Of a stretch of 64,000 nt of DNA, positions 34,605 to 62,288 are shown one piece after another. Both the position numbers and the translations under genes were made by a program. The stretch lies in the IMG/VR virus record IMGVR_UViG_3300048091_000424; one strand, written 5' to 3'. The notes beneath the pieces are model-generated. The model was given only the letters and a program-made list of their open reading frames with translations, did not search any database and was not told the origin of the DNA. The stretch is from a virus. Lineage: Duplodnaviria > Heunggongvirae > Uroviricota > Caudoviricetes. The stretch's first letter is position 1, and the number at the start of each line of letters is the position of its first letter.

Positions 34605-34652
34605 TTTAAGTTGCACTCTGATGCATTTCAAAGTGTTGGTTTTAATAGTTTT

Positions 34653-34728
34653 GTTCCATTCGTCTAGTGGCCTAGGACAGAGGGTCTTCACCCCTCAAAC
34701 GCCGGTTCGAGTCCGGTATGGAACTCCA
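34653..34728 (+). tRNA. tRNA-Glu(TTC) with C33 (loop UCUUCAC)
   Basis: Acceptor GTTCCAT/ATGGAAC fully paired; arm GAGGG-TCTTCAC-CCCTC; encoded CCA. Confidence 0.7.
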
Positions 34729-34812
34729 ATTTTGTTCGTTGTGTGGAGTAATTTCTGTGTCGGCAATCGAAACATAGACACAATTAAAGCTGTCACTTTG
34801 GACACAAAACAC

Positions 34813-34890
34813 GGTTTGTTAGCTCAGCTGGATATGAGCGCCGGCTTGTCACGCCGGAGGTCGCGGGTTCGAGCCCCGTACAAACCGCCA
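34813..34890 (+). tRNA. tRNA-Asp(GTC), canonical
   Basis: Acceptor GGTTTGT/ACAAACC; arm CCGGC-TTGTCAC-GCCGG; GGTCGCGGGTTCGAGCCCCGT as in bacterial tRNA-Asp; encoded CCA. Confidence 0.9.
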
Positions 34891-34896
34891 CTTACC

Positions 34897-34973
34897 GCTT
34901 CTGTAGCTCAACTGGATAGAGCAGCGCCCTACGAAGGCGAAGGTTAGAGGTTCGAGCCCTCTCAGAAGCACCA
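34897..34973 (+). tRNA. tRNA-Arg(ACG)
   Basis: Acceptor GCTTCTG/CAGAAGC; loop CTACGAA; encoded CCA. Confidence 0.9.
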
Positions 34974-35004
34974 TTTCAAACGCCTGGCTCACCCCAGACG
35001 ATCT

Positions 35005-35083
35005 ACCCCAGTCGCCAAACTGGATTAAGGCACCGGTCTTCGAAACCGGTCATGTGCAAGTTCGAATCTTGCCTGGGGTACCA
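35005..35083 (+). tRNA. tRNA-Arg(TCG), Gln-like D-arm
   Basis: Acceptor ACCCCAG/CTGGGGT; arm CCGGT-CTTCGAA-ACCGG; T-arm GCAAG-TTCGAAT-CTTGC; encoded CCA. Confidence 0.75.
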
Positions 35084-39712: not shown

Positions 39713-40441
39713 TCAGGGTGTTTCCAGGGTTAACGTAGAACTCTCGTACGTTTCGTTGCTGTTCATCTCGACCAAGGTCAGGAAACCGTGCTGCTCGGGG
39801 TAGCAGACGCCGGTGTCGATGTAGCAGATATTGCCAAGCCTTTGTCGACTTTTAAGGGACGTGTGACCAACAAATAATATGTCTAAATTGCCTATCGTTT
39901 TGTTGTACCTGTCAACACGCCATACGGTCGATTCAGCCAAATGACTCCCCCTCAATAACTCGGGAGAGTAGTGGCTGATTTCCAGAACGAAATCATCCCA
40001 ATCATCCATAGGACATTGTGCGTGCACGATCCCAAATCGACGCCCATCTTGAGCTTCCACCTCGATAGCCAAGGGTAATCGCTGAAACGCGTGAATGATT
40101 GCCGCTCGGGTACCGGATGGCAGTTCATAGAACCAGGCTCCGCCATGATTGACATGCCTCTGCCGACGGCCTTGCAGATCTACGCCTGCAGCAATACACA
40201 TCAGATCGTGGTTGCCAATAACCGCATGCACCCAGGGTTTGGCCAGCCATTCGAGAACTTTTATGGAGAATGGGCCACGGTCGACCAGATCGCCGGCGAG
40301 AAACAAGCGGTCTTTTTCCGGGTCAAAACTGACATGCTCTAGCAGCGCTTCCAGTTCACAGAAATGCCCATGGACATCACTGGCAATGAAGTCTCGGCCA
40401 CGCGTGTTTTTTGAGAACTTGAGGTAGTTTTTATTGGTCAC
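39713..40441 (-). CDS. Ser/Thr protein phosphatase (lambda PP/PrpA-type metallophosphoesterase)
   Basis: DVHGH, GDLVDRGP, GNHD, VHAQ, GHT motifs; GTG start at 40441 after GAGGA (track start 40465). Confidence 0.85.
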   Translation of the reverse strand: MTNKNYLKFSKNTRGRDFIASDVHGHFCELEALLEHVSFDPEKDRLFLAGDLVDRGPFSIKVLEWLAKPWVHAVIGNHDLMCIAAGVDLQGRRQRHVNHGGAWFYELPSGTRAAIIHAFQRLPLAIEVEAQDGRRFGIVHAQCPMDDWDDFVLEISHYSPELLRGSHLAESTVWRVDRYNKTIGNLDILFVGHTSLKSRQRLGNICYIDTGVCYPEQHGFLTLVEMNSNETYESSTLTLETP

Positions 40442-40619
40442 GCGAGGCCATCCTCGACAACTCACAACCGCTATCGGGATGGGCCATCAATCAACTTACG
40501 ACAGCATTGAACCTGCAGGACGAAACGCCGCAAGGGACTCAACAAACTGGAGAGAAGAAGTTGACACAGGTAACCGACTTCGGAGGAGATTTTTGATGGC
40601 CCAGGTTAACACTTATTAT

Positions 40620-41107: not shown

Positions 41108-41692
41108 TTAATGCGTCAACTCACCGCGAATCGTGTCGATTCGACCGAGCAGTCCTTCAAGGGGATAGCCCTCTTCAATCAAGCGGGACACATCGCCCTT
41201 CAACGAGAGAACGTGTGAGGAGGCTGAATTCAGTTTTTTAGCCACGTCACGATCTTTGGTGTGGGCGTAAGACGCACCCAGGTCGGGACGAATATCAAAC
41301 GGCTGAACCTTCAGCAGGTTGGCCAGGGAGACCAGTACCGATTGCGTCAGCGGGCGCTTGCCGTTCAAAGCAATGGTCAAGTTGGAGCGATCAACCCCAA
41401 TGTTTTTGGCCGCCGCGCAACGAGTGATGCGGTTGGAGCGCTGATACAATGCCCAGGCGCCAACTAGACGCTCCCAAGTTTCGCGGTCAGAGCCTTTGAC
41501 GGCGACGTCGATGGGCGTTTTAAGAATTTCTTCACAAGCTTTGATGATGGCTTTGCCGAAAAAACGCAGGTTTTCATGCTGTCCCGGCATCTTGAGCGGT
41601 TCGAGCTCGCGCAGGTAACTATTCTCTGGCAGCCGACTCCAAATGCCATCCAGCAGCTGCCCCAAATTAGGCTTGGTGGGCTTTCTCGCCAT
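41108..41692 (-). CDS. XRE-type helix-turn-helix domain protein (194 aa)
   Basis: ITRCAAAKNIGVDRSNLTIALNGKRPLTQSVLVSLANLLKV is a typical Cro/C1 HTH. Confidence 0.6.
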   Translation of the reverse strand: MARKPTKPNLGQLLDGIWSRLPENSYLRELEPLKMPGQHENLRFFGKAIIKACEEILKTPIDVAVKGSDRETWERLVGAWALYQRSNRITRCAAAKNIGVDRSNLTIALNGKRPLTQSVLVSLANLLKVQPFDIRPDLGASYAHTKDRDVAKKLNSASSHVLSLKGDVSRLIEEGYPLEGLLGRIDTIRGELTH

Positions 41693-41773: not shown

Positions 41774-42175
41774 TCACTGCTTTGGTGCTCCCTGGTTAGG
41801 TTCAGGGTTGCAGTTCGGAATGACGACATCCCCTTCCACCAGCCCCATACGGGAAAATTCTTTGAAGACGCATCGCTTGGCTTGCGGCTCGAAGTAGGAC
41901 ACCCACAGTGAATCTTCTTTCCAGGTGGCGCCGAGGAACTGAGCATTGGTGGGGAGCTCAACGGTAAGCGTGCCCCCGAAGCGGCGAGCGACTGTGTTTC
42001 CCAGGTAGAACTGCCAGAAACTCCAGCCGACGACGCCGACCAACAGCGCTGAGCAGAAGGCCTTGCCCAGACGAGTCAACTGACTGCCGCTTGCGTACTG
42101 TAAGACAACGAAACCCACGAGGCCCATAACCACCAGCAACGCGATGAAATAGACGTAAATAGCCATAAATACCAA
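41774..42175 (-). CDS. Hypothetical membrane protein (133 aa)
   Basis: Two N-terminal TM helices; preceded by promoter motif at 42219..42237. Confidence 0.55.
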   Translation of the reverse strand: MVFMAIYVYFIALLVVMGLVGFVVLQYASGSQLTRLGKAFCSALLVGVVGWSFWQFYLGNTVARRFGGTLTVELPTNAQFLGATWKEDSLWVSYFEPQAKRCVFKEFSRMGLVEGDVVIPNCNPEPNQGAPKQ

Positions 42176-42872: not shown

Positions 42873-44021
42873 TTACGCCACGCCCACGGCTTCACTCACT
42901 CCCGCCGTCGGCAACATTACCGCTTTCGACCACGAGAACAATCGGCGTCCGATCTGAGGCGTCGGCAACTCGCCAATGCTCTGACCTTTAGACGCGTGCA
43001 GCTTCAACCACAGCCACGGCAGGTTAACCCCGCACAGCAGACTAAGGCCCAGGCCATCACTGAAGCGTGGGCTGGCGCTGAGCACCTTACAGCGACCCTC
43101 GCTGTCGAGCTTGAATTTGGCGTTGAACAAACCGGAAAATCCAAATTCACGGACGATTATTTGCAGCTGACGGCGCAGCTCCGGGTTGTCGACAATTAAC
43201 TCACCCTCCTCCTCGCCTTCCGGTTTCTGGCGAGCGACGTAGGTCACCAGCTGACCTTTCCACGCCAGGCAATCCACGGAGAATTCTTGGCCAGGCAGGT
43301 ACTCCATCACGATCCAGTTATTGGCGGCGCCGGCTTTGATCGAAGCCTGGTGCGCCAGCAAACCGAAATCAGGGAAGCGCATGACCTTGTTCTCGGGAAA
43401 GAACAGTTGCTGGTGTGGATCAGGGTGGTCGTCGAAACGGTAGAACGCTTTGCCGAGTAGCCGATTGGACGGTTTTGCGCACACGGCTTTAAGTTCGTCC
43501 GGAACAGCCACCATGCGTGTTTTGATGGTCGCCACGCTGTCATTCAACTGGGTCTCATAGTCGTCGTTCCAGATCAGCCAGGCCGGCACCATGTCGCCAT
43601 AGTAGGCCTGCTCAAGCCGGTGGTAGAACTCAGCCTTAACGTCGAGCACCGCCAGTTCCTTTGGCGAGCAGCTGTACAGCAACTCCACGCCGATGGCCCG
43701 GAAGTCTTCACGGCGCTCGATCATCGCTGCATAGAAACGACTGACGACGATACAGTCGATGCCATGCTCGGCGGCATAGCCCAGGGCCCAGTCAGTGTAA
43801 TCCTGCGCCGAAATGCTCGAAGCTTCGACCGCGACCTGGTCAGCCAGGGTGAAACCGATGAAGTTCGGATTGTGGTGCGTCACATGGATTTGTTGCAGAA
43901 TACGCTCGCTTTCATGGAGCATCGACTCATGTTGCTTGATGGACTGAATGGCTTCGGCGATCACTGCCATTCCGTCGTTGAACCAGACCTTGAGCTTCAC
44001 GTACACCACACCCTGAGCCAT
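42873..44021 (-). CDS. ATP-grasp enzyme (382 aa)
   Basis: WIVMEYLPGQEFSVDCLAWKG...VARQK...GLFNAKFKLD...KVLSASPRFSDG follows the ATP-grasp_4/CPSase-like pattern. Confidence 0.65.
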   Translation of the reverse strand: MAQGVVYVKLKVWFNDGMAVIAEAIQSIKQHESMLHESERILQQIHVTHHNPNFIGFTLADQVAVEASSISAQDYTDWALGYAAEHGIDCIVVSRFYAAMIERREDFRAIGVELLYSCSPKELAVLDVKAEFYHRLEQAYYGDMVPAWLIWNDDYETQLNDSVATIKTRMVAVPDELKAVCAKPSNRLLGKAFYRFDDHPDPHQQLFFPENKVMRFPDFGLLAHQASIKAGAANNWIVMEYLPGQEFSVDCLAWKGQLVTYVARQKPEGEEEGELIVDNPELRRQLQIIVREFGFSGLFNAKFKLDSEGRCKVLSASPRFSDGLGLSLLCGVNLPWLWLKLHASKGQSIGELPTPQIGRRLFSWSKAVMLPTAGVSEAVGVA

Positions 44022-44108
44022 AAAATATGGGCGGATGGTACGTAGCAGATTGATAAACTGTCAATATATACGTATTGTTTCAAGGGGTTAAACACACCTC
44101 ATTCATGC

Positions 44109-44853: not shown

Positions 44854-44882
44854 TTGACTCTTTCTTGCTGTCACTTTAATAT
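44854..44882 (+). promoter_or_regulatory. Sigma70-like promoter TTGACT-N17-TAATAT
   Basis: Hexamers and spacing read directly; 29 nt upstream of ATG 44911. Confidence 0.6.
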
Positions 44883-44910
44883 CACTCACATAACTCCAGG
44901 AGTGTTAGTG

Positions 44911-46038
44911 ATGGATGCGGATTTTCTAAAGGCGATAGAAGCCGAGCGGGCCAAACAAGAAAGTTTCCAAAATGCTGTCGCAGCGGAAGCGGCCAAGCAG
45001 CAAAAAGTGGTCAATGGCAAGCTGCTCAACTACCGCTCAATCTGGTTCATGTTTATGGTGCTGGTGTTTGCGCCAGCCTGGTTCCTGGCTTCCAGTGTTG
45101 AGGGCATTTCCTTCGGCCTTGCCGTCGATGTCGTGCACGCCGGGCTTGAGGGCCTGTACTTCCCCGGCTGGCTCGCCAGCCTGGTCAGCTACCCTGTGAC
45201 CGCGATGGCAACCCTGATTCCAGGATCGAGCAGGTCGGCCTATTGGGCCGTGTACATGGTCTTTTCATCCTTCAGCGTGGTCATCTTTTTTGTGTATTTC
45301 ATGCTGGTTGAGCCCCCGAACTACCGGAGGATGAAGTTCGAGGCCGACCCGCTGTGGGAAGAGAAACTTCTCGTCAAGTACCCGGTTCCCAGTAAACTGA
45401 GACCGGTTTCTTTCAGCAGCATGATCGTCTTCCTGATCCTCTCTTCGCTGTTCGGGGAAGTGGTGTCCGGCTACAACCGAGATCCGCTGGCTGACACTTA
45501 TGTTGGCTCCATCTACCTCATCGACAAGAATCGCAACGAGACGCCACTCCGGGCCACCATCAAACTGGACATGATCGATCCTGGCTACATCTACGATAGA
45601 AAGCCCGGTGTGAATACTCGCAGCTGGCACATCGAATTCAGCGGTGAAGACCTGCCCATGCTGAAATCCATCGGGATCGATGAAAAGTTCTTCAAAGGTA
45701 ATGTCGACTTCGATGGCTATGGCAGCGTGGTCTGCTCTGCGAGTATCGGTACCGCGCAGTATTACGTGCCAAGCTTCCTGGGCGGGACGATCTTGCTGAT
45801 CCGCAATCACTATGTGAATGCTCCGGACAGATACTCCGACTACAAGTGCCCGGAAAACATGCACTTCGGCCTTGAAAACTTGAACCAGGGTCATTTCGCC
45901 ATCGCGGACATTTCAAAGAAATACATCATTGCCGCGAAAATCGAGCGCGATTCCCGGTTTAGCTGGATCCAGCGCAAAATTATGGAATATCGCTATCAGA
46001 AGATCGGCACGAACTTCTTTGACCGAAGGAACCGATAA
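44911..46038 (+). CDS. Membrane protein; C-terminal domain paralogous to 61623..62288
   Basis: AGGAG RBS; several TM helices; ERDSRFSWIQRKIMEYRY matches ERDSRVSFIQRMVMRMRF. Confidence 0.65.
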   Translation: MDADFLKAIEAERAKQESFQNAVAAEAAKQQKVVNGKLLNYRSIWFMFMVLVFAPAWFLASSVEGISFGLAVDVVHAGLEGLYFPGWLASLVSYPVTAMATLIPGSSRSAYWAVYMVFSSFSVVIFFVYFMLVEPPNYRRMKFEADPLWEEKLLVKYPVPSKLRPVSFSSMIVFLILSSLFGEVVSGYNRDPLADTYVGSIYLIDKNRNETPLRATIKLDMIDPGYIYDRKPGVNTRSWHIEFSGEDLPMLKSIGIDEKFFKGNVDFDGYGSVVCSASIGTAQYYVPSFLGGTILLIRNHYVNAPDRYSDYKCPENMHFGLENLNQGHFAIADISKKYIIAAKIERDSRFSWIQRKIMEYRYQKIGTNFFDRRNR

Positions 46039-48413: not shown

Positions 48414-49820
48414 TTAACGCCCTGGCCCGAAGTCAGTTTCCGGCTGCTCCTTGAGAAAGCGACTAACCGCATCGCGACGAGCTGTCCTCACCGCCGTCTT
48501 GGCAGCCTCCAGAATCAACGCCTTATCCGGTGTCCGGTTCCTTGCAATGGCCCGTGCCTCTTCCTTCGCCATGGTGGCCTGCATGATCGGGCCTGGCTTG
48601 ACCGAACTCACCGCTTCCATGGCGCTCAGCAGGTAAGCTCCCTGCAGATACGTTTCTGGCCTTTTGGTCGAACCATCCTTTTGACGAATACGTCGGCCAA
48701 AGTTATCCGCTGCGCACATCGTCGCCACATCCCCTAAAAAGGCCTTGTCGTGGCGCTGAATTCGATCAAGGTCAAGGCGCTCATATAGCGCCTGAAGGCC
48801 CTGGCGACCTGCTGACGAAATGCGGTGTACTTCTTGATGGGTCAACGCACATTTGTGCACAAAGTACTGGATTTCAGACGGCATCTTGATGCGGGCGGCC
48901 AGCGTGTCAAGAAGCCCCTCAAAACGTTCTACATTTTCGTGCCCATGGTGATGGCCACGAACGGAGCCGTCCGCGTACCACAGCAAATCGGCTGGTGTCT
49001 TGATCTTGCCCAGGTCATGGAGCAAAGCAGCCATGCGAATCCGCAGAGAGCTCGCCGTTGAATGGCCCGTCGTTAGCTTGGCCGCTTCATCGAGAACCAT
49101 CTTGGTATGGATCCAGACATCACCCTCGGCGTGGTAATCATCCCGCTGTGGAACGCCCTTCATCTGCTCCAGTTCAGGGAACAGGACTTTCAGCGCCCCA
49201 CAGGCATCCAGCACATCAAAATAGACGTGTGGGTTGGGTGTCAGCATCGCCTTCTCGGTTTCTTTCCAAATCCGTTCTGGCTTGATGTTGGGCTTGCCGC
49301 TCGGCGTCGTTGGATTGAGCATCCCTTTGGACGTCATCTCAGTCATCAGAGACATGGTCTCTGGCGCCACAGAGAAGTCGTACCTTGCCGCGAAGCGGGC
49401 TACGCGCAGAATGCGCAACGGATCCTCAGCAAAGCTCGGGCCGACATGCCGCAGCGTGCGATTTTGAAGGTCTTGTTGGCCGCCGTAGGGATCGAACACC
49501 GTTCCGTCATCCAGCTCGGCCATGGCGTTGATGGTGCAATCCCGGCGCCCAAGATCTTGCTCCAGCGTGATGCCTTCCCACTTGTACTTGAAGTCGTTGT
49601 AACCATCACCGGTGCTGATTTCCGAGCGGCCAAGGGCGTACTCGTCGCCGGTTTCTGGGTGCAGAAAGACCGGGAAATCCCCGCCCACCTGGGTAAAGCC
49701 GCGACTCAACATTGACTCCGGTGATTCGCCGATCACCACATAGTCGATATCCGTGGGCTCAAGGCCAAGCAGCCTATCCCGGACACAACCCCCCACTCTG
49801 TAGCACTTCTCAAATGTCAT
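48414..49820 (-). CDS. cca: CCA-adding tRNA nucleotidyltransferase with HD domain
   Basis: ATG 49820 after GGGAGGA; YRVGGCVRDRLLG...DIDYVV head motif; HD motif AALLHDLGK. Confidence 0.9.
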   Translation of the reverse strand: MTFEKCYRVGGCVRDRLLGLEPTDIDYVVIGESPESMLSRGFTQVGGDFPVFLHPETGDEYALGRSEISTGDGYNDFKYKWEGITLEQDLGRRDCTINAMAELDDGTVFDPYGGQQDLQNRTLRHVGPSFAEDPLRILRVARFAARYDFSVAPETMSLMTEMTSKGMLNPTTPSGKPNIKPERIWKETEKAMLTPNPHVYFDVLDACGALKVLFPELEQMKGVPQRDDYHAEGDVWIHTKMVLDEAAKLTTGHSTASSLRIRMAALLHDLGKIKTPADLLWYADGSVRGHHHGHENVERFEGLLDTLAARIKMPSEIQYFVHKCALTHQEVHRISSAGRQGLQALYERLDLDRIQRHDKAFLGDVATMCAADNFGRRIRQKDGSTKRPETYLQGAYLLSAMEAVSSVKPGPIMQATMAKEEARAIARNRTPDKALILEAAKTAVRTARRDAVSRFLKEQPETDFGPGR

Positions 49821-49930
49821 AGGCCTATATCCTCCCTGACGGGTACCAAGTGCGTGTGTCTTACGCACGCGCTCACATGTTAAATTCAAGTATGACTCAC
49901 GCCGCAACGGCAAAGAAGAGATTCTCGTGC

Positions 49931-51289
49931 ATGGACAACACCTTCCTCGGGCAATATTACCCAGCAGCCTCTGATCGTGAGCGCCGAGCCCTGGCCGAGA
50001 GGATCAGACACATCTCTGATGAAGATCGAGCCGCCCTGTTCAATGACCTGTCGAAAATGTCCGCTGATACCCTATTCTACTTCGTTGAGGGTATGACTCA
50101 GGCTCAGGCATTACCGCACCTGGTCACCATGGCTATCGAATCCAGGCCAACTTTAACGGGTTTCAACTACAACAACACCCTCTCCATGATCAACTTGGCG
50201 CTAAAAACCCCTTTCGACGAAAAATTCGACAAGGCCGCTGCCGTCTCGGGCGTTGCTAAGCTGATCAAAGGGTATGTGCACCGCACCAACATGAACCTCA
50301 TCGAAGGTATCTCAACGTCGCTGACGAAGGAATCGATAACCCTCTTGTCGGGTCATCACGAGATCGACGCGGCATTTGTTGAACACCTCGGGCGTGCATT
50401 AACTAAAAAACCAAGTTTCGCGCAGACCCAAAACATCATTTATGGCCTGCGTGATCTTGATATTCCACTCTCGTTCGCAACCTTCCTCGTTACGATCAAG
50501 GAGCCTGAGCAATACGCCATTCGTTCGAACCTCTTAAACGACTTTTACCACGGCAATGCCTTGACGCCCGCCTACATCAAAACCATTCGTGCCGAGTTGG
50601 GCGATGACGTTCTGATTAACCTGGCCAGGTTGAACATTAACGAAAAGAAAGCCGGCCTCACATCCTTCAACTGGATAGTGAGTGAATTGACAGAAGCGGT
50701 TGTGATCAACCAGGCCACCCTGGATCAGCAGCTTGCAGCTTCTATCAAGGCGAAAAAGGCCTGTGATTTTTTCAGCGACATTCTGGCGGGAACCAAAGGC
50801 TCTGGGATCTACGAACAATCTGCCACGTTTGTGTTGAACAACCTGGCTACCCTCATCAAGCACGAAAAACTGGCACCGAGTGAATCTTTTGCCTACTTTG
50901 CCAGGGATTCAAAACGGGGCCAGGAGCTGGTAAGCGTTTACCTGGACAAAATAGCGTCCATGATTTCGGGGCTGGATGATTTCCGCGATGTGAACCCTGA
51001 GCATCGCTTCGACGCTAAGGCCAATACCCAAGGCGCGGTGTTGAGCGAGGTGTTCAACATTCGCTATGAGCTGCCTGAAGCTCGGGACATCAAAACCTGG
51101 CGCAACGCAACCATCCGGGCTATCACCACCACTGGTGTGCTGGAGTTTGCCGAGAGCCTAGCCGACATCCATGAACCAGCTGCGATGGCGATCTACAAGG
51201 ACATGGGCACCGTAGCGAACCGAGATGAAATCCTGAAGAAGTTCATGAAGATTCGCCAGGTCGCGTTCTGTTCCGACTTAGGTATGTGA
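49931..51289 (+). CDS. FxxDLGL-tail family protein (variant ...AFCSDLGM)
   Basis: ATG 49931 gives MDNTFLGQYY, parallel to MQNTFLGENF of the next gene; collinear paralogues. Confidence 0.75.
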   Translation: MDNTFLGQYYPAASDRERRALAERIRHISDEDRAALFNDLSKMSADTLFYFVEGMTQAQALPHLVTMAIESRPTLTGFNYNNTLSMINLALKTPFDEKFDKAAAVSGVAKLIKGYVHRTNMNLIEGISTSLTKESITLLSGHHEIDAAFVEHLGRALTKKPSFAQTQNIIYGLRDLDIPLSFATFLVTIKEPEQYAIRSNLLNDFYHGNALTPAYIKTIRAELGDDVLINLARLNINEKKAGLTSFNWIVSELTEAVVINQATLDQQLAASIKAKKACDFFSDILAGTKGSGIYEQSATFVLNNLATLIKHEKLAPSESFAYFARDSKRGQELVSVYLDKIASMISGLDDFRDVNPEHRFDAKANTQGAVLSEVFNIRYELPEARDIKTWRNATIRAITTTGVLEFAESLADIHEPAAMAIYKDMGTVANRDEILKKFMKIRQVAFCSDLGM

Positions 51290-51320
51290 AACATCCCCCA
51301 ACCACGAAAGAGACGTAAGC

Positions 51321-52667
51321 ATGCAGAACACCTTCCTCGGGGAAAATTTCACTCTCCCAGCATTTTCAGAAAAGGCGCTGCTGGGAGAAAGAATCAAGAA
51401 TATGACCGCCGAAGAGCGGACTTACCTTGAAAATGACCTGGCGGCCATGAGTGCTGAAGCTGTGTATCACATCGTCTCCCAAATGGCTGTCGCCACCCGT
51501 CTGCCAAATCTGGCCAGTGCGGCTGTAGCCTCTCGCCCTGTGCCCACGGGTTTTTGCTTTAATCACACCTTGTCGATGCTCAATTACGTCCTGGTCAATC
51601 AGGATGAAGAGGAGTTTGACGCCGACCAAGCGCTCCTCGACGCCGCTAGCCTGATCAAAGGCTATCAGCACCGGACGAACATGAACCTGCTGGAAGAAGT
51701 TTCATCCCAGGTGACCAAAAAGTCGAAGGCGTTGATGGCCGGGAACGCAGGCATCGACGAAGCCTTTGTCGAACACCTTGGCCGAGCGCTGGAGAAAAGG
51801 TTAGTTTTCAGCAAAGCGGAAGGCATGATCGCCGGCCTATGTGAACTAAACCTTCCCCAGTCACTTAAATGCGTACTGGCTGCCTTCAAGGCGTCAGAGC
51901 ATGTGCACCTCCTCCATACAACACTCCAGGATTTGTACACAAAGGACGCGCTCAACCCGGCTTACATCGAAGTGGTGAGGTCTGTGTTGGGCGACCAGAG
52001 CTTGATCAGCCTGGCCAGGACGCACCTGAATGACAACTCTGGGCAGAAGTCTTTTGTTTGGCTACTGGAAGCATTTTCAGAGAAGACACTGCTCGATCAC
52101 CTTACCCTGGGTGATCATCTGGAATATTCGATCAAACTGAAGAAGCCCTGTTTCTTCTTCAACAGCATTCTGAGAGGGAACAAAGAGCTAGGTCTTCTCC
52201 AGAATACTGGGAACTTTGTGTTGGACAACCTCGCGGTTTTGGTCGCGAGCGAAGCATTTCCGCCTAGCGATAAGCTGGTCGAGTTTGCCATCGAGCAAGG
52301 ACGCGGCGCCGAATTGGTTAGTCTGTATCTGGACAATATTCGGGCACAGATCACTCGTATGGAGGATCGTGTTCACGCCGAAGATCGTTTCGATTCGATA
52401 GGCGCCACACCGGGCCAGGTGTTGAATGAAGTCCTCAAGAATCGCTATAGCATTGAGGCTCCGGAGATTACCCGGTGGCGTGATGCGACCATCCGAGCCG
52501 TCATCAAAATTGGCGTGCTGGAGTTTCAGACGGTACTGGCTGACATGAACGAGGAGCTGGCCACCACCCTTCACAAGCAAATTGGTAATGCGCCGAACCG
52601 TATGGAAATTCTGGAGAAGTGCCTCAAGATTCGGCAGGTCGCGTTCAGCCACGACCTGGGCTTGTAG
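51321..52667 (+). CDS. FxxDLGL-tail family protein (448 aa)
   Basis: Ends KIRQVAFSHDLGL; paralogue of 49931..51289. Confidence 0.75.
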   Translation: MQNTFLGENFTLPAFSEKALLGERIKNMTAEERTYLENDLAAMSAEAVYHIVSQMAVATRLPNLASAAVASRPVPTGFCFNHTLSMLNYVLVNQDEEEFDADQALLDAASLIKGYQHRTNMNLLEEVSSQVTKKSKALMAGNAGIDEAFVEHLGRALEKRLVFSKAEGMIAGLCELNLPQSLKCVLAAFKASEHVHLLHTTLQDLYTKDALNPAYIEVVRSVLGDQSLISLARTHLNDNSGQKSFVWLLEAFSEKTLLDHLTLGDHLEYSIKLKKPCFFFNSILRGNKELGLLQNTGNFVLDNLAVLVASEAFPPSDKLVEFAIEQGRGAELVSLYLDNIRAQITRMEDRVHAEDRFDSIGATPGQVLNEVLKNRYSIEAPEITRWRDATIRAVIKIGVLEFQTVLADMNEELATTLHKQIGNAPNRMEILEKCLKIRQVAFSHDLGL

Positions 52668-55338: not shown

Positions 55339-56277
55339 CTAGTTGAAGTATACGGGGTACCAGACCTGCCGGCCATAGTCGAAATTCCACTTCTGCCTTA
55401 ATTCAACCGTGTCTGCAGCATTTATATACGAAGGGCCCGTGGCGTCGACTATCAAGTAGCGTTTTCCGTCTTTGATGTAGGCCAATTCGTCAGGAACTTC
55501 AGGCATTTCTACCGCCGAGACGATGTGTTCTTTGTCCGGCAAAAGCACCAAAAATACCGAGCGGTTCGGATACATCTTTTTTAACAAACCGGCCATGTAG
55601 ACCTGTTTGCTCTCGCAATCCCCTTGCTTCTCCACCAGCATTCGGATGGGCGTCAGCATGCCAAACTCGTTGTTCTGAAGGGCGTCGTAAGGGATCGACT
55701 GGAGAAAATTGAGCCGGTCGTTGATCATCTGCGATTGCGTTTTACCGGGGTCTCGCCGCTGAAAGAACTGATGGGTGACACCTATGATGTCGGCATAGTC
55801 GAGGATGATGTCCTCGTAGTTGATGATCAGCTCTTTCAGCTCCTGGTCATAACGGTAGTAGGTGATCGGGCGCAGCTCGTCGAACGCGCCATCGATGTAA
55901 GCTTTGACCTTGAGATAGGCCTCCTTGGCCATGGCTTCACTGCCCTCCCTGTAGGTGTAACTGATCTCGTAGGATTCGCCAAAGGTTCTGAGACTCACTT
56001 GCACATCAGCCGAAGAGAGTTGCTGGGACAGGATCTTGGCTTCGTCCATGACCTTATCTCGCAATTGTTCATGGCCATACATGTCTCGGCCAGCTGTCAT
56101 GGCTATGCGCATCCTGGACTCACCGATAGTAAGGCCAAAATGCTGCGTCTCCCCCGCCTCGTCTTTCCACCAGTGCTCTAGGTAGTAAGGCTCTGCCTGA
56201 CTGTGGCCAGCGAAGACCAAGTTGATTACTAGGGGCAAAAGGAGTTTCGTGAAGTGTCGGCGCATGATAATAGACAA
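55339..56277 (-). CDS. Secreted protein, possible transglutaminase-like cysteine peptidase
   Basis: Signal peptide ...LVFAGHSQA; ordered GDCES ... EHIVSAV ... IVDATG resembles a Cys-His-Asp triad. Confidence 0.45.
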   Translation of the reverse strand: MSIIMRRHFTKLLLPLVINLVFAGHSQAEPYYLEHWWKDEAGETQHFGLTIGESRMRIAMTAGRDMYGHEQLRDKVMDEAKILSQQLSSADVQVSLRTFGESYEISYTYREGSEAMAKEAYLKVKAYIDGAFDELRPITYYRYDQELKELIINYEDIILDYADIIGVTHQFFQRRDPGKTQSQMINDRLNFLQSIPYDALQNNEFGMLTPIRMLVEKQGDCESKQVYMAGLLKKMYPNRSVFLVLLPDKEHIVSAVEMPEVPDELAYIKDGKRYLIVDATGPSYINAADTVELRQKWNFDYGRQVWYPVYFN

Positions 56278-56415: not shown

Positions 56416-57733
56416 TTAAGGCGCCGTACCATCCCAGTAATGCAGCGGCACCTTCGGCCCTGTGGAGGCCAACCAGCCTGTTCTCCCGCCAATCAAGGTC
56501 GTCACCGCATGGTTGCGCACAAACCCGACGTGCTGGGCCGCCAGCAACGCTGCGTCGCGAATAAGCGGTGTAATCGAGCTCGCGGACTGGAAAAGCGGCG
56601 TCAAATGACGACTGGCGGACTGGTAATACCCGAGGTGCTTGCGGCGGTACTTGGAGTATTGCGCAAAAATCGCGGGCCAGTGCAACACTTGGGGCTCCTC
56701 CGCGATCTCGCGTTCGATGATGACCTCGGCAATAGACATGGCGTCCACCAGGCCCATGTTGGCGCCCTGCCCCAGTTGTGGGCTCATCGAGTGCGCACAA
56801 TCACCGATGGCCAACACCCTGCCGCAATGCCAGCCAGGCATCTCGATGTCGGTGTAGGTGGCCAGGGAAAATTGATCCTCCGACTGCAATTGCTCCAACA
56901 AGGGATTGACGTGGGTGCCCACCAGGGCTCTGACGTCGCGCTTCCAACCGTCCAGTGACCCACTCGACCCAAAGAGGCCGTGGCCGTATTCAACAGGTCG
57001 GCTCCAAAACAGGCTGCACAGCCGCTGCGTGTTATTGGCAGCTTCGCCTATCGGCATGATTCCAAACATCTGCCGGCTCTGCTTGTACCATTGGCGCAGA
57101 ACGCTTTCGTTCAGGCGGTCTGGCAGCTCGACCGTCGCCCACAAGGCACCCCCACGTATAAGGCTTCGCCCGGTGCTGGATTGATGACTTGTATTGCAGC
57201 GTGGAGTTACGCCCGCTTGCGAGGATCAACGCGTCGTATTCGGATGAAATCTGCCGGGTTGCAACGATGCTGTCTAACACGGATTGGCTGGCCGGGGACG
57301 GATTGCGCTCCGTAAGCGTGATCTCGATCACTTCAGCACTGACAAAATCACTGACATTAACCCCGAAGAAGAACTTCACGCCGCAGCGCTTGGCTTCTTC
57401 ATACAACACCTCGAGGAGAACACTGCGATGAATGCCCAGGCCGTGTGCCCCACGCTTCCAGTGTTCATACCGGGTATCGAGAATCAGTCGCTCACCGAGC
57501 TTGGAAGTGCCCAGCACGCCCTTGAGTGGAGCGCCCTTCCTCAGGCATTGATCCAACAGCCCCAATTCGTGAAGAACAGCCATCCCGGACGGTTGCAACA
57601 TGATTCCTGAACCGACCGCCTCGAGCGTAGATGCCCGCTCAAGGACATGAACTTCCAGGCCTGAACGTTTGAGGAAAATTGACGTGGCAATCCCTGCCAC
57701 CCCAGCGCCAACAACTGCTATGGCCATACGCAT
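56416..57733 (-). pseudogene. FAD-dependent monooxygenase interrupted by a +1 frameshift
   Basis: N-terminal ORF (57032..57733) has VVGAGVAGIATS; C-terminal ORF (56416..57144) has IGDCAHSMSPQLGQGANMGLVDA; frames meet at a run of five C at 57149..57153. Confidence 0.7.
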
Positions 57734-57781
57734 TCCTTTTCGGGGGATCTGATCGCGTCTAAATTACACAGATTTGCGGAA

Positions 57782-57812
57782 ACAAAAAAGCCCGGACATG
57801 TCCGGGCTTCTC
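57782..57812 (-). terminator. Rho-independent terminator after the TerD gene
   Basis: AGCCCGGAC-at-GTCCGGGCT, with TTTTTT on the minus strand. Confidence 0.85.
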
Positions 57813-57827
57813 TGACGACGAGCGTGA

Positions 57828-58421
57828 TTACAGCGCGGACTTCACCGCTGCGATCATGTCAGTAACGACGTTGCCAGGGGTCGCCTTGGCCAGTGCAATG
57901 ACCTTCCAGCCGCCAGCTACACGCTCCAGCGCGGCCATAACCATCCCGGTATTGTTACCCTTCTCGGAGATGTTCATGAACGTAAGCTTGGTCTTGCGGC
58001 CCGCTTCCATGTCATAGATGGAGCAGTGGGCGTTTTCGACCTCGTTAAAGGTCTGATTACGAAACGAGTTAACTGTGAAAACCAGGTACTTGGCCCGTGG
58101 GTTCAAACGATCCAGATCGACATCGATGGTCTCGTCATCGCCGTCGCCGGCGCCGGTCAGGTTGTCACCGCCGTGACGGATGGAGCCACAGGCGCTGATC
58201 TTGTTGCGGAACCAGATCGTATCGAGCAGTTGTTTGTCGTCATCCAGCACCAAGCAGGATGCATCCAGGTCGATTTCCTTGGCTGTACCACCAAAACCAA
58301 GAAAACCTTTGGACTTCGCCGGATCCCAACCCAGGCCCATGGCGATTTTGGACAGCGGCAGGCCATTAGGCTTGGACAGGCTTACACGATCACCTTTCGA
58401 AAGACTGACTACGTTACTCAT
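57828..58421 (-). CDS. TerD-family stress protein
   Basis: VSLSKGDRVSL..., DLDASCLVLD, calcium-site motif GDNLTGAGDGDDETI. Confidence 0.9.
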   Translation of the reverse strand: MSNVVSLSKGDRVSLSKPNGLPLSKIAMGLGWDPAKSKGFLGFGGTAKEIDLDASCLVLDDDKQLLDTIWFRNKISACGSIRHGGDNLTGAGDGDDETIDVDLDRLNPRAKYLVFTVNSFRNQTFNEVENAHCSIYDMEAGRKTKLTFMNISEKGNNTGMVMAALERVAGGWKVIALAKATPGNVVTDMIAAVKSAL

Positions 58422-58479
58422 AAAAATGTTCCCTTTTTGAGAAAAGAAGCCGGCAGCAAGTGCGTGCCGGCATTAGCAG

Positions 58480-59073
58480 TTAGCCCGCGACCAGACCGAC
58501 TTCCTTCAGGACGCCCTGCAGGCCATCACGGTAACCCTGGCCGACAGCACGAACTTTCCAGGCGTTGCCTTCACGGTAGATATCGGCCATCACGACTCCG
58601 GTCTCTGGCTTGTAGTCTTCGGTGAGGGAGAAACGGATCAGGGTTTTGCCGGTGTCCATATCGTCGATATGGAACACAGCGGTGGGCACCTGACCGAAGT
58701 CGTGGCCGCGCTCTTTGGCTTCGTGGATGCTTACCACATAGCGCAAAATCGAAACGGTTTCAGGCAGGCGTGCACGCTTGAAGGTGATTTGTTCATCGTC
58801 ACCCTCACCTGCGCCGTCCAGGCTGTCCTTACCACACTTGAGGGAGCCGCACGCCGATTCCGGGTTGCCATAGAAAATGAAGTTCTTGGCGCCGTGGCAT
58901 TTGCCGTTGGCATCGAGCATCAGCACGCTGGCGTCCAGGTCGAATTTATGGCCGTTGACCGGTTCCTTTGGTGCATCCCAGCTCAAACCCACGCGCAGGT
59001 TTTGCAGATCATCGGCACGCTTGGTCAAGTCCACAAATTGGTCTTTGGAAAGATTTACGATCATATCGCTCAT
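58480..59073 (-). CDS. TerD-family stress protein
   Basis: FDLDASVLMLD, GKDSLDGAGEGDDEQI. Confidence 0.9.
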   Translation of the reverse strand: MSDMIVNLSKDQFVDLTKRADDLQNLRVGLSWDAPKEPVNGHKFDLDASVLMLDANGKCHGAKNFIFYGNPESACGSLKCGKDSLDGAGEGDDEQITFKRARLPETVSILRYVVSIHEAKERGHDFGQVPTAVFHIDDMDTGKTLIRFSLTEDYKPETGVVMADIYREGNAWKVRAVGQGYRDGLQGVLKEVGLVAG

Positions 59074-59149
59074 GGAAATTACCCTATCAGACAGTGAATT
59101 AAATGGTGTGAATTGGCGGGGCCTAATTGCGGCCCCACCGAGTGGCCAG

Positions 59150-60175
59150 TTAGGCCGTTACCGGAGCTTTGCTCTCTTCAGCCTTTTTGTGGCGGAAGGA
59201 AGAAAAGATCGCCAGGGCAATCAAGACTGCGCCAGCCAGACCGGTGAACATCTCTGGCACGTGCATGAAGTTGTGGCAGAGCATGATTGCAGCCAGGACA
59301 CCGATGGCGTAGTGAGCGCCGTGCTCCAGGTAGACCAGTTCAGCCAGTACACCAGCACGAACCAGGTGGATCGTGATCGAACGCACGAACCAAGCGCCGA
59401 TGGCCAGACCCAGCATGATGATGATCGGGTCATTGCTCATCGCGAAGGCGCCAATCACACCGTCCAACGAGAAGGACGCATCAACGACCTCAAGATAGAG
59501 AAAACTCATGAACCCACCGCGCTTGATAGTTTCCGTCACTGCCTCGCCAGTGTCTTTGTCTTCGAAGGCGTTCTTCAGCAGACCCATCACGAAGTACAGA
59601 GCGATACCGAAGACGCCGGCGAACAAGAACGTGCCAACCTTGCCTGCTTCAATACCCATGGACACGCTAATCAGGACAACCAGGGCCACAATCGAGCTCA
59701 TCGTCTGGTGCTCGCCAAAGCGGCCCATAAGACGCTCTACGCCACCCAGCCAGTGGTGTTCTTTTTCGGAGTCGAACAGGAAGTCGAGGAAGATCATCAG
59801 CAGGAACATGCCGCCGAATGCGGTAATCGCGGTGCTCGCTTCGTCCAGGTGTTTGGAGTACGACGCGGTGTCATTGAACACCATGTTGGCCGTTTCCATG
59901 AAGCCCAGGTTGGCGGTGACTGCAACGATGAGCACCGGCAGTAGCAAACGCACGCCTACCACTGCAATCAAGATACCCAGCCAAAGGAACAGGTTCTGCC
60001 AAAAAACACTCATATTTTGGAGGATTTTAGCGTTGAACACGGCGTTATCAAAGCTCACGCTCACTTCAAGCACGCCCAGGATCGCGACGATGAAGGCACC
60101 TTCCACCCCATGGAAGTAGTAACCCAGACAAATACCGATGATGGCGACCAGCGCCGACGTCCAATAATTTCGCAT
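59150..60175 (-). CDS. TerC-family/DUF475 integral membrane protein
   Basis: ATG at 60175; multi-TM; paired motifs EVSVSFDNAVF and VDASFSLDGVIGAFA. Confidence 0.8.
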   Translation of the reverse strand: MRNYWTSALVAIIGICLGYYFHGVEGAFIVAILGVLEVSVSFDNAVFNAKILQNMSVFWQNLFLWLGILIAVVGVRLLLPVLIVAVTANLGFMETANMVFNDTASYSKHLDEASTAITAFGGMFLLMIFLDFLFDSEKEHHWLGGVERLMGRFGEHQTMSSIVALVVLISVSMGIEAGKVGTFLFAGVFGIALYFVMGLLKNAFEDKDTGEAVTETIKRGGFMSFLYLEVVDASFSLDGVIGAFAMSNDPIIIMLGLAIGAWFVRSITIHLVRAGVLAELVYLEHGAHYAIGVLAAIMLCHNFMHVPEMFTGLAGAVLIALAIFSSFRHKKAEESKAPVTA

Positions 60176-60410
60176 TGCCAAACCTCTAGTTTTAGGAAGC
60201 GAGGCGAGACACCGGTAGGAGCCCTTTCTCGACTTTTGAGTGAGTGGAGTAGCCCCGAGCATTCAATCCGATAGGATCGGTACTGGGCCAGAGCCAAACG
60301 CGAGAGGGATTATTGCGAATATTGACGACTTGTCAATACATGTGGAATGTTTTTATGGCGTTTTGATGCCAGCCTGCCGAACAGTGGTGCCCGGCAGGAG
60401 GTGCGATAGG

Positions 60411-61457
60411 TCAATCGATGTCAGACGGTGAGCGCGGATTGCGAACTCGGCGGCTGTTTGCTTCACGCTTTTTCCGGACAGATTCAAAAGCTCGCCAGAT
60501 CGACATCGCTGCCAACGTCTGAGCGCAGTTAATGCGCCTGTCGTAGCCACCTTCGTACAGTCCGTCCTCAGTGATCCGTTTCACATCACGAATCAATTTG
60601 GTATTGGGAACGATGTTCTCTTCCAGGTCGAAGGTGCCGTAGTACACCTCGCACATGCCAGAGATCATGTGGCTGTCAGGGCGCATCTCACCGATCTTTT
60701 CCAGGCCACGGAGTGGCAGGCCGGTCAATTCCTGCAAGACAATCGCGGCAGCGGTTTCACGGTTGTGCATTTTCGACGCCGGCACCCGTGGAAACTCGAG
60801 CACGTGCAGACTGTCAATTTCACTGAATCGTTCCACCATGAGGAAATGTCCATCACGTGGATCATGCATGAGAATGATCGCGGTCTTCCCGTCCGGGTAG
60901 CGCATCACGTACTGATATTTGGGCCCAACAACAATTTCAAAGCCAGGCCCCTCCAGCACCACATCGCCTGGACGGCTGGAGCGCTTCTGCCCTGCCATCG
61001 AATCATTGCCCTGCAGGCGCCTAAGGAGTGTGCTGATGCTTTGTTCGATAATGACAGTGAGGTTGGCATGGCTCTGCACCGCTGACGGTGACAAGGCCTT
61101 GTTAACGTCCTTTACACCTGGGAGGGTCATCAGGTAGCTCTCAAAGGCCACTTGAAACTGAGTGCCGATTGATTGTGCCCGTAAATACTCAATATCAAGG
61201 AGTTGCCGAAACTTGTTGAGACCACTACTCACATCGGTACGGTGCCAGGGGTGGATCTCGCACATCAGCTCCAGTAATTGGCTTAGTGATTTAAGCCAGT
61301 GTTCACCCAGGTCGGGGATCTCATAAATCGGGCTGGAGAAGAGTTGATACAACGCCGAGGAACTGAAATTATTCAGCATGAAATCAAGGCGTTCTTCAGG
61401 CGTAGCGATGGCCATCAATGTGGCTTCAGCAGATACATTTGGCATGGTTATACCCAT
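60411..61457 (-). CDS. Protein with degenerate Nudix-like domain (348 aa)
   Basis: LEFPRV-x8-RETAAAIVLQELTGL approximates the Nudix box but lacks the REx2EE glutamates. Confidence 0.4.
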   Translation of the reverse strand: MGITMPNVSAEATLMAIATPEERLDFMLNNFSSSALYQLFSSPIYEIPDLGEHWLKSLSQLLELMCEIHPWHRTDVSSGLNKFRQLLDIEYLRAQSIGTQFQVAFESYLMTLPGVKDVNKALSPSAVQSHANLTVIIEQSISTLLRRLQGNDSMAGQKRSSRPGDVVLEGPGFEIVVGPKYQYVMRYPDGKTAIILMHDPRDGHFLMVERFSEIDSLHVLEFPRVPASKMHNRETAAAIVLQELTGLPLRGLEKIGEMRPDSHMISGMCEVYYGTFDLEENIVPNTKLIRDVKRITEDGLYEGGYDRRINCAQTLAAMSIWRAFESVRKKREANSRRVRNPRSPSDID

Positions 61458-61622: not shown

Positions 61623-62288
61623 ATGAAAATCCGTAGCTTTAGTACCGCAGCTGCTGTGGTCGTGACCGTCTTGGTGGTCATCGAGATCTTTTTAGGTTTT
61701 GCTCGCAACCCATTGGATGACCGCTGGGTGGGTAAAGTCGAATTGGTGACCATTTCCAAGGTTAAGCCACTCGACGTCACCATGACCTATGAGATGCTCG
61801 ATCCAGGTTTCGTGATGAACATTCGTCCAGACGTTACCCGTCCTGGCGTGAGGATCACCTACGAAGGGCCAGATGCTGACGTCCTGCGTAAAATGAACAT
61901 CAAGCCTGAATTGTTTGCCAGCCCGGATCGGTGGAAATTCAGCCAGGGCTACTGCAACCTCCATGTCGAGAAGAAGTTGGCGTGGCAGGGAACCAGCTAC
62001 CTCGGTGGCCCAGAAGTCAACATGTACGCAATGCGTTACCAGACCGAGCCGAAAGATCCGTGCGAGACCTACGAGCTTGGCGTGGTTGACTTTAACCACC
62101 TCGACTTCAAAATCTTGCGTCCTGGTGAAGGCCAGTACAGCATGAACGGTATCAGTCTGAAAGACATGGTTCATGTGTCGCTGGAGCGTGATAGTCGCGT
62201 AAGCTTCATTCAACGGATGGTTATGCGGATGCGGTTCGGATGGTGGCTTGAACAACCAACTTTCCAGAAAGATGGTTCAAACACCTGA
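61623..62288 (+). CDS. Membrane-anchored protein, paralogue of the C-terminal domain of 44911..46038
   Basis: N-terminal TM; shared blocks MLDPGF/MIDPGY and ERDSRVSFIQR. Confidence 0.65.
   Translation: MKIRSFSTAAAVVVTVLVVIEIFLGFARNPLDDRWVGKVELVTISKVKPLDVTMTYEMLDPGFVMNIRPDVTRPGVRITYEGPDADVLRKMNIKPELFASPDRWKFSQGYCNLHVEKKLAWQGTSYLGGPEVNMYAMRYQTEPKDPCETYELGVVDFNHLDFKILRPGEGQYSMNGISLKDMVHVSLERDSRVSFIQRMVMRMRFGWWLEQPTFQKDGSNT

Follow-up and report, generated by a model that had tools for sequence, protein, structure and literature searches.

The Ter stress-resistance system has been known for about three decades, and in its classical form it is encoded by the terZABCDEF operon of IncHI2-type plasmids and Escherichia coli O157 islands, for which the pE5_001 cluster (terZ-A-B-C-D-E) served as the reference here. 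The mechanism of the system is still poorly understood (PMC8779313, PMC12054061). In R478, insertions in terZ, terC and terD abolished tellurite, phage and colicin resistance and insertions in terE and terF did not, according to Whelan (1995) as summarised in PMC12054061. On a megaplasmid of Pseudomonas citronellolis, terC and terD were the minimal tellurite-resistance pair and slowed growth, which was restored when terZ or terA was added (PMC8779313). TerC of Klebsiella pneumoniae affects Zn, Mn, tellurite and phage plaque size (PMC12054061), TerC-family proteins of Bacillus export Mn2+ and metalate exoproteins (PMC12096827), and TerD binds Ca2+ according to Pan (2011) as cited in PMC8123226. 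The present analysis concerned the window, that is, the whole 64,000-nucleotide stretch of DNA held as virus record IMGVR_UViG_3300048091_000424, and within it three adjacent minus-strand genes (the trio), which encode a DUF475/TerC-like membrane protein followed by two TerD paralogues, named TerD(a) and TerD(b). The trio was found to be an ordinary, well-conserved representative of the known Ter stress-resistance system, and it was considered probable that its single operon encodes the smallest genetic core of a membrane stress-response system of Ter type. The locus itself brings no new kind of system; Ter clusters are usually large and redundant, and this one is a naturally pared-down version with one leftover enzyme and a candidate regulator.

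Like the classical operon, the trio contains a TerZ-type protein, a TerD-type protein and a multi-pass membrane protein of the TerC clan; both are plasmid-borne, and relatives of both are linked to ATP-grasp, phosphoribosyltransferase (PRTase), StiP and lyase genes. The two differ in that the membrane protein here belongs to DUF475 and not to TerC, the gene order is C-D-Z and not Z-A-B-C-D-E, and the regulator is a candidate Cro-type helix-turn-helix (HTH) protein in place of TerW. When the pE5_001 proteins TerB, TerW, TerY1, TerY2 and DUF4236 were compared with the window by tblastn, no match was obtained, and TerA, TerE, TerX and TerF matched solely the two TerD genes. The composition of the trio corresponds to terZ, terC and terD, the genes required in published genetics, and because those genetics fit the gene content, DUF475 is read here as a probable cation-handling unit with TerD partners.

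Other described systems were also compared with the trio. Clusters with an orthologous trio, unchanged in gene order and promoter position, occur on plasmids pMPPla107, pBASL58, pPL1 and pPNAP04 (Polaromonas) and on the Pseudomonas sp. FeN3W plasmid. Like DUF475, MeeF (YceF) and MeeY of Bacillus subtilis and Alx of E. coli are membrane proteins of the TerC clan in which conserved polar motifs occur as a pair, and they are the sole clan members with a demonstrated activity, namely Mn2+ export and metalation of exported proteins (PMC12096827). They differ in family (PF03741 against PF04332 here) and in control, since their genes are riboswitch- or sigma-factor-controlled and no riboswitch match was obtained here. 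DUF475 proteins of phages (37-48% identity) adjoin TerD, often with vWA and PRTase genes, and likewise lie on a large mobile genome; the carriers were Acinetobacter phage ME3, Caulobacter phage CcrPW, Klebsiella phages (phiKp34-like and 05F01) and Rhizobium and Ralstonia jumbo phages. These sets differ from the trio in that they belong to virion-forming phages and have another gene content and order, for example vWA-DUF475-x-TerD-x-PRTase-HAD-PRTase in ME3.

The original prediction, made from the letters of the window and their open reading frames (ORFs), had described a TerD-TerD-TerC/DUF475 module at 57828-60175. Three minus-strand ORFs of 341, 197 and 197 aa were confirmed there, their identities were correct by Pfam, NCBIfam and PDB matches, and the motifs that had been quoted (GDNLTGAGDGDDETI, GKDSLDGAGEGDDEQI, SFDNA and SFSLDG) were all found. 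The membrane protein matched PF04332 (DUF475) at E 3.3e-97 with 326 bits over profile positions 1-291 of 293, PF03741 (TerC) as a secondary match at E 1.4e-15 (57.9 bits against a cut-off of 27.8), and NF010613 at 390.5 bits against a cut-off of 385. Its AlphaFold model was all-helical, with a pLDDT of 80 and a pTM of 0.79. The two conserved polar motifs are LEVSxSFDNAV and YLEVxDASFSxDG; SFDNA and SFSLDG sit in blocks invariant across plasmid, phage and chromosomal homologues, and residues E37, S39, S41, D43 and N44 as well as D232, S234, S236 and D238 were invariant in 38 DUF475 homologues. Comparison of one motif with the other in hhalign gave a weak match (E 0.024 over 15 columns), and an internal duplication of DUF475 was set aside, the similarity being at motif level and too weak. 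The comparison of the DUF475 profile with classical TerC in hhalign was likewise confined to the motifs (E 0.0027) and too weak to add to the Pfam result.

Both TerD proteins matched PF02342 far above its cut-off of 25.3 bits, TerD(a) at E 5.7e-59 over profile positions 1-185 of 187 and TerD(b) at E 3.8e-38 over positions 3-179 of 187. TerD(a) aligned to the K. pneumoniae TerD structure 2KXT at E 1.5e-42, and both proteins aligned without gaps to a solved structure (2KXT or 3IBZ) with the DLDAS and GDN..GDGDDE segments in register. The calcium-binding segments sought, DLDAS and GDN(R/L)TG(E/A)GDGDDE, are present in both proteins; TerD(b) carries IDLDAS and GDNLTGAGDGDDE, and TerD(a) has FDLDAS together with a variant of the second segment, KDSLDGAGEGDDE, that retains the acidic positions. 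Pan et al. are said to have found in 2011 that a motif of the GDN..GDGDDE/DLDAS type forms the Ca2+ site of TerD. The prediction of two TerD paralogues with intact calcium motifs was upheld, but the two are not interchangeable, one being of TerD/TerE type and the other of TerZ type. Against the pE5_001 proteins, TerD(a) showed 42% identity to TerD, 37% to TerE and 34% to TerZ (150, 130 and 90 bits), and TerD(b) showed 48% identity to TerZ and 32% to TerD (164 bits for TerZ, 100 for TerE, 89 for TerX and 89 for TerD). The second TerD of DUF475 operons in Oxalobacteraceae matched TerD(b) at 167-192 bits, and the order with the D-type first and the Z-type second is found downstream of DUF475 in Oxalobacteraceae chromosomes as well. 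A recurrent four-gene variant was seen in Pseudoduganella/Massilia chromosomes (loci L033, L075 and L038), where DUF475 is followed by a D-type TerD, a 231-aa gene and a Z-type TerD; the 231-aa protein has an AIM24-like appearance, as judged from its residues alone.

The prediction that the module lies on a mobile replicon held, as synteny and nucleotide identity placed the window in the pMPPla107 family of Pseudomonas megaplasmids. The window was collinear with the 1.17-Mb pPL1 of Pseudomonas silesiensis at about 78% nucleotide identity (range 75-80%) across its length, pMPPla107 and pBASL58 gave patchy nucleotide matches, and orthologues were present in pMPPla107, pBASL58 and FeN3W. The window is therefore described here as backbone of a pMPPla107-family megaplasmid of roughly 1 Mb and not as phage DNA; a phage origin was also tried, and megablast against 50,697 phage records gave no match. 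An array of 11 tRNA genes lies at 33172..35083 on the plus strand (Asn, two Leu, three Glu, three Asp and two Arg), and large tRNA sets are a described trait of this megaplasmid family (PMC6482414). An identical DUF475 protein, named Pseudomonas serbica in NCBI, was found on a 1,077,129-bp contig, and identical trio loci were found in several JGI and Logan assemblies.

The family members compared were the window, pPL1, pMPPla107, pBASL58, the FeN3W plasmid and five metagenomic relatives (including L102-L106). The neighbourhood comparison that had been proposed, in which absence of the module from most relatives would have counted against it, found the trio in the same order in all ten (10/10). 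Identity of the DUF475 protein was 93% to pPL1, 58-59% to pMPPla107, pBASL58 and FeN3W, and 57-85% to the five metagenomic relatives. The ratio of nonsynonymous to synonymous substitution (dN/dS) against pPL1 was 0.083 for DUF475, 0.092 for TerD(a) and 0.106 for TerD(b), at dS of 0.6-1.2, and the trio is under strong purifying selection. In the FeN3W plasmid (CP136011.1; L004/L015), an island of about 28 kb separates DUF475 from the TerD pair and splits the operon; the region concerned is 909.6 kb to 27.9 kb across the record start, and the island carries two integrases and a type I restriction-modification system.

The trio was confirmed as one operon by its promoter, its terminator, gaps of 76 and 58 nt between the genes, and conserved hairpins (Table 1). 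The start of DUF475 was placed at ATG 60175, in agreement with the end coordinate that had been predicted for the module, and a longer ORF from ATG 60262 (59150..60262) was rejected; the former was preferred because it is preceded by a GAGG ribosome-binding site and the pMPPla107 DUF475 is annotated from the equivalent MRN... start, while the latter start codon has no counterpart in the nearest relative, pPL1. Antisense ORFs within the module (e.g. 58877..59944, plus strand) were treated as by-products of composition because the domain matches and the low dN/dS sit on the minus-strand frames. The predicted promoter was recovered, and with a 17-base spacer it reads as the ATAATC that had been proposed. 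Its block is kept against pPL1 with diverged flanks, and a near-consensus promoter was present at the equivalent place in 10 of 10 family members checked. Folding of the leader was unremarkable (z = -0.67). The yybP-ykoY Mn2+ riboswitch is frequent on TerC genes, and it was looked for in the leader and rejected, as no Rfam match was obtained at the gathering threshold or at E up to 10; weak Rfam matches fell solely on the terminator.

Both intergenic hairpins are conserved in pPL1. In the stem after DUF475, pPL1 has a compensatory C-G to T-A change as well as a G.U pair replaced by A-U. The hairpin predicted between the terD genes was located at 58471..58449 on the minus strand, followed by UUCUUUUCU; its stems are identical in pPL1 and its loop and flanks differ, and from its sequence it is possibly a partial terminator or an mRNA stabiliser. 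The strong terminator at the end of the operon was also verified, as none of 200 shuffled sequences folded as well and pPL1 differs at one loop base. Separately, an inverted repeat GTTGCC-N5-GGCAA(T/C) was seen just 3' of the -10 element in the pMPPla107-like and pBASL58-like DUF475 leaders (pMPPla107, L002 7957..7973; pBASL58, L003; FeN3W, L004), and it was absent from the longer DUF475 leaders of the window and pPL1. By its sequence this repeat may act as a hairpin at the 5' end of the mRNA or as a second operator.

Table 1. Positions of the trio, its expression signals and related features in the window
Feature	Position	Strand	Size or measure	Basis or remark
DUF475 / TerC-like integral membrane protein	59150..60175	-	341 aa	PF04332, PF03741, NF010613
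TerD(a), TerD/TerE type	58480..59073	-	197 aa	PF02342; 2KXT alignment
TerD(b), TerZ type	57828..58421	-	197 aa	PF02342; 48% identity to TerZ
Sigma-70 promoter, TTGACA-16-AATAAT	60309..60336	-	11 of 12 consensus positions	
5' untranslated leader	60176..60302	-		3' ~70 nt, including GAGG, nearly invariant against pPL1
Intergenic hairpin after DUF475	59115..59139	-	-22 kcal/mol, z = -2.69	No U tract
Hairpin between the TerD genes	58440..58471	-	-19.6 kcal/mol, z = -3.75	U-rich tail
Intrinsic terminator	57780..57814	-	-23.1 kcal/mol, z = -3.95	14-bp stem and U tract
Operator-like palindrome TATTGAC-N5-GTCAATA	60320..60338			Overlaps -35 hexamer and spacer of the ter promoter
Second palindrome copy, TATTGACAGTTTATCAATC on the minus strand	44048..44066			27 nt upstream of the ATPgrasp_Ter start
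ATPgrasp_Ter	42873..44021	-		PF15632, E 2.5e-28; 14 kb from the trio
Small membrane protein	41774..42175	-		43% identity to L104 20070-20435, the penultimate Ter-cluster gene
Cro/C1-type HTH protein	41108..41692	-		37% identity to L104 20432-21007, the last Ter-cluster gene
Conserved downstream neighbour	55339..56277	-	312 aa	Signal-peptide-like N-terminus
Upstream neighbour, ADP-ribose-pyrophosphatase-like Nudix fold	60411..61457	-	348 aa	Model pLDDT 81

The idea of an autonomous, minimal three-gene module was not borne out, as the trio proved to be the remainder of a larger, family-wide Ter cluster. In pMPPla107, pBASL58, pPNAP04 and L104-L106, the trio continues into genes for ATPgrasp_Ter, PRTase_2/TRSP, a hypothetical protein, StiP/PELOTA_1 and C-C_Bond_Lyase, and the pMPPla107-like L104 and L106 then add a weakly TerB-like gene, a vWA-TerF-like gene, a small membrane protein gene and a Cro-type HTH gene. 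Since the relatives run on into genes that are missing here, the trio is regarded as a reduced state and not as an independent design. Anantharaman, Iyer and Aravind reportedly predicted in 2012 a Ter-linked pathway (ATP-grasp, PRTase_2/TRSP, HAD, StiP/PELOTA and C-C lyase) for a nucleoside-like metabolite, and the Pfam family names in the cluster agree with this biosynthetic module.

The window keeps four homologues of the extended cluster, namely the 312-aa downstream neighbour, ATPgrasp_Ter, the small membrane protein and the HTH protein. The original prediction had linked two ATP-grasp genes of the window to the module; the link held for ATPgrasp_Ter but not for the second gene (7477..8361), which is of the R2K clade and unrelated to Ter. 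ATPgrasp_Ter, whose Pfam entry is titled "ATP-grasp in the biosynthetic pathway with Ter operon", has 42% identity to the pMPPla107 ATP-grasp adjoining the trio of that plasmid and a dN/dS of 0.074, and it is the sole surviving enzyme of the Ter-associated biosynthetic module in the window. It lies one or a few genes downstream of the trio in pMPPla107, pBASL58 and the metagenomic relatives, and in the window and pPL1 the two are set apart by an FAD monooxygenase gene plus about 11 kb of further genes. The window and 173 kb of pPL1 surrounding the locus gave no match to PRTase, StiP, C-C lyase (HpcH-like), TerB-like or vWA genes. The 15 best of 2,560 plasmid records with a match to the pMPPla107 PRTase, listed down to identities of 33.5%, did not include pPL1. 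The HTH protein also matched the HTH gene of L106; HTH_3, HTH_26 or HTH_31 was matched over the same residues in four family HTH proteins, and the profile score was above the Pfam cut-off for the pPL1 and L106 copies. Homologues of the 312-aa neighbour follow the TerD pair in one or two copies in pMPPla107, pBASL58, FeN3W and L102-L106, and this protein had no Pfam, NCBIfam or PHROGs match.

The distribution of DUF475 outside the plasmid family was surveyed in 79 chromosomal loci, in which TerD was sought within 10 kb. TerD was present at this distance in 44 loci, and 12 had two TerD genes directly downstream. The arrangement DUF475-TerD-TerD with none of the other searched Ter-associated genes within 10 kb was stable in about 10 chromosomal species (Oxalobacteraceae).

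The FAD monooxygenase frame (56416..57733, minus strand), which directly follows TerD(b), is split by one extra base near 57140, beside a GGGGG run. The frame is unbroken in pPL1, and Logan contig SRR23073773_392 (L016) has an intact gene of 436 aa; two JGI assemblies (L017 and L018) show the identical split, and the 85%-identical relative L102 lacks the gene at the equivalent position. Either the gene is a genuine polymorphic pseudogene or the extra base is a homopolymer sequencing error.

An operator-like palindrome recurs at the Ter promoters of the family. The copy at the ter promoter is perfect in the window, pPL1 and FeN3W, with its five spacer bases differing in each, and has one or two mismatches in five further relatives; the window and FeN3W copies are both perfect although their DUF475 proteins are just 59% identical. 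A copy upstream of ATPgrasp_Ter is also found in pPL1, L102, L104, L106, pMPPla107 and FeN3W (perfect in FeN3W), and a copy lies upstream of the operon holding StiP and the lyase in FeN3W (perfect) and L105. Across 325 kb of family sequence, 5 of 5 perfect copies were at Ter promoters. At no more than one mismatch in 12 positions, 3 sites were found in the window against 0.16 expected, and a few weaker copies occur at non-Ter promoters. The Cro-type HTH protein is a likely candidate for the binder of the palindrome.

A third operator-like site, TATTGACTACAAGTCCATG at 27531..27549, was noted in a promoter-like context (TTGACT-16-TATACT) upstream of 27593..28108, beyond which lies a PgpA phosphatidylglycerophosphatase gene (28649..29152). 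In FeN3W, the TerD pair is directly followed by phospholipid-synthesis genes (CDP-alcohol phosphatidyltransferase, acyltransferase and CdsA). These two observations give hints of a link between Ter and membrane lipids.

In the favoured reading of the trio as a core stress-response operon, DUF475 would be a TerC-like inner-membrane protein that transports or passes on divalent cations (Mn2+, Ca2+ or Zn2+) by way of a polar core formed by its two conserved motifs. The soluble beta-sandwich proteins of TerD/E type and TerZ type may dock on its cytoplasmic face and tune or restrain it depending on Ca2+ or another metal, and the TerZ-type subunit would prevent the toxicity of a TerC and TerD pair alone. 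The near-consensus sigma-70 promoter is predicted to drive the operon, with a palindromic operator shared with the displaced ATPgrasp_Ter promoter and presumably bound by the Cro-type HTH protein from the end of the truncated cluster. The output would be buffering of envelope, metal and oxidative stress in megaplasmid-bearing cells, which in the laboratory might be read out as tellurite or metal resistance and possibly as colicin or phage resistance.

Several points weigh against this reading. DUF475 is a family separate from TerC, with no BLAST-level similarity to classical TerC; neither a solved structure nor a structural analogue was found for it, and a literature search gave no functional study of any DUF475 protein. 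As many as 31 of the 79 chromosomal DUF475 genes had no TerD within 10 kb, and DUF475 therefore has no strict need of TerD. TerB, which had no tblastn match in the window, was essential in the minimal operon of E. coli pTE53 (PMC8123226). In pMPPla107 the palindrome has a degenerate right arm, in L106 this arm is lost, and the left arm is the -35 hexamer itself, so that independent information lies in the right arm only; for these reasons the evidence for an operator is moderate. A bolder proposal, that the trio, the orphan ATPgrasp_Ter and the Cro-type HTH gene form a self-contained regulon through TATTGAC-N5-GTCAATA operators, with a core that works without the metabolite and TerB, is offered as a tentative and rather doubtful extension.

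Superinfection exclusion had been suggested for the module, in which case the trio would sense ions leaking when phage DNA is injected or a competitor element enters, block or abort the infection, and so protect the cell that bears the megaplasmid. Phage inhibition by classical ter needs terZ, terC and terD, and deletion of terC in K. pneumoniae enlarges plaques, but the effect of TerC is mild, as plaque size and not plating efficiency changed for 7 of 8 phages (PMC12054061). DUF475 and TerD sets were present in about 40 phage records, including jumbo phages, the PHROGs category of the DUF475 family is "moron, auxiliary metabolic gene and host takeover", and the FeN3W restriction-modification and integrase island was inserted inside the locus. 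The surroundings of the trio, however, are conserved plasmid backbone with hypothetical genes and no defence island, and the nearest homologues on chromosomes, those of methanotrophs, Oxalobacteraceae and Streptomyces, are single-copy and widespread. No PADLOC-DB 2.0 model matched the trio, ATP-grasp, the Nudix-like protein or other neighbours, the single match being one to Csn2 at chance level (E 0.0037) on the 312-aa neighbour, and a search for the TerY-P triad gave no vWA, PP2C or kinase in the window ORFs scanned. An anti-phage role as the primary function was judged unlikely. It was also asked of the data whether the trio might be a decaying remnant, no longer useful after the loss of the biosynthetic genes and simply not yet deleted. 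The missing PRTase, StiP, C-C lyase, TerB-like and vWA genes and the frameshift in the adjoining FAD monooxygenase would suit such decay, but the dN/dS of 0.08-0.11 for the trio and 0.074 for the orphan ATP-grasp (dS of about 0.6-1.2), the intact and conserved promoter, ribosome-binding sites, hairpins and terminator, the identical copies in several independent assemblies, and the stability of DUF475 with two TerD genes alone in about 10 Oxalobacteraceae chromosomes make it very improbable.

A metal-delivery chaperone like MeeF and MeeY is a further reading, in which DUF475 would give Mn2+ or Ca2+ to exported proteins and stress resistance would be a side effect. The clients would be plasmid-encoded secreted or envelope proteins in translocation, and the TerD proteins would act as cytoplasmic metal donors or sensors. 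The meeF (yceF) gene of Bacillus presumably lies in an operon with TerD homologues. MeeF, formerly named YceF in Bacillus, and MeeY metalate exoenzymes and interact with SecYEG (PMC12096827). Conserved genes flanking the trio encode proteins whose N-termini resemble signal peptides, such as the 312-aa neighbour, and a protein of about 150 aa with an N-terminus of this kind is encoded just upstream of DUF475 in pMPPla107, pBASL58 and FeN3W. Against this stand the facts that DUF475 is not TerC proper and that the literature search gave no studied DUF475 protein, that no client protein was identified, and that the flanking proteins had no recognisable metal-dependent domain; metal delivery as the main role was judged not probable.

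If the regulon proposal is true, the natural deletion would be evidence that neither the predicted nucleoside-like metabolite nor TerB is needed for the Z-C-D core to work, and the retained ATP-grasp would serve a different, core-linked role. The DUF475-type core would then be a portable unit by which megaplasmids and jumbo phages control envelope ion homeostasis of the host, and a Pseudomonas plasmid family already in experimental use would offer a compact system for solving the Ter mechanism. Because the locus is pared down and the plasmid family is already handled in the laboratory, it may be used as a small test-bed for the gating of a TerC-like transporter by TerD, the role of the TerZ-type subunit and the dispensability of the predicted metabolite pathway.

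Among the other genes of the window that had been linked to the module, the Nudix-like gene upstream of the trio was partly sustained, as its Nudix fold is real according to the structural model but its Nudix box is degenerate and it lies near the trio in only part of the family. The C-terminal fold of the protein matched Nudix ADP-ribose pyrophosphatases in Foldseek against the PDB (E 6e-9, TM 0.65-0.76), and no Pfam match was obtained. One of the three catalytic glutamates was kept across 33 homologues, and the family had only 40 members, on contigs up to about 1 Mb. A role as obligatory partner or regulator was considered. Of the relatives, pPL1 alone has the gene directly beside DUF475, pMPPla107 has it at a distance of no more than about 3 kb, and a search within 8 kb of DUF475 yielded no copy in pBASL58 or FeN3W. 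A link of the Nudix-like protein to the Ter module is uncertain. The PPP phosphatase of the prediction was found as a calcineurin-type phosphoesterase (39713..40465), but this is not a recognised Ter partner and was rejected as one, not being of the PP2C or HAD type of Ter clusters. The R2K-clade ATP-grasp was rejected as a partner as well, its clade being unrelated and its gene 50 kb away.

Some further genes of the window were noted. The C-terminal half of the 394-aa product of 44854..46038 (plus strand) matched pPL1 (L001) 14281..14928 at 26% identity (E 2e-19). That pPL1 gene is the orthologue of the window gene for a 221-aa protein (61623..62288, plus strand) just upstream of the Nudix-like gene, so the two window products are probably paralogues; neither had a family assignment. 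A phage-like enzyme set spans 2903..9278, with Peptidase_M15 (2903..3493), dCTP deaminase (4233..4799), a non-specific endonuclease (5227..6120), the R2K-clade ATP-grasp and a PTH2 peptidyl-tRNA hydrolase domain protein (8535..9278). An ART-PolyVal ADP-ribosyltransferase gene (20911..21516, plus strand) is followed by five consecutive ORFs of 373-400 aa, up to 27514, with no Pfam match. At 48414..52667, a CCA-adding tRNA nucleotidyltransferase (PolyA_pol and HD) lies beside a pair of paralogous ORFs (448-479 aa) that had no family match; pPL1 has three such paralogues in tandem. A gene for an SPFH/Band 7 membrane-scaffold protein (36324..37262, minus strand), beside the tRNA array, is a further envelope-associated gene of the window.

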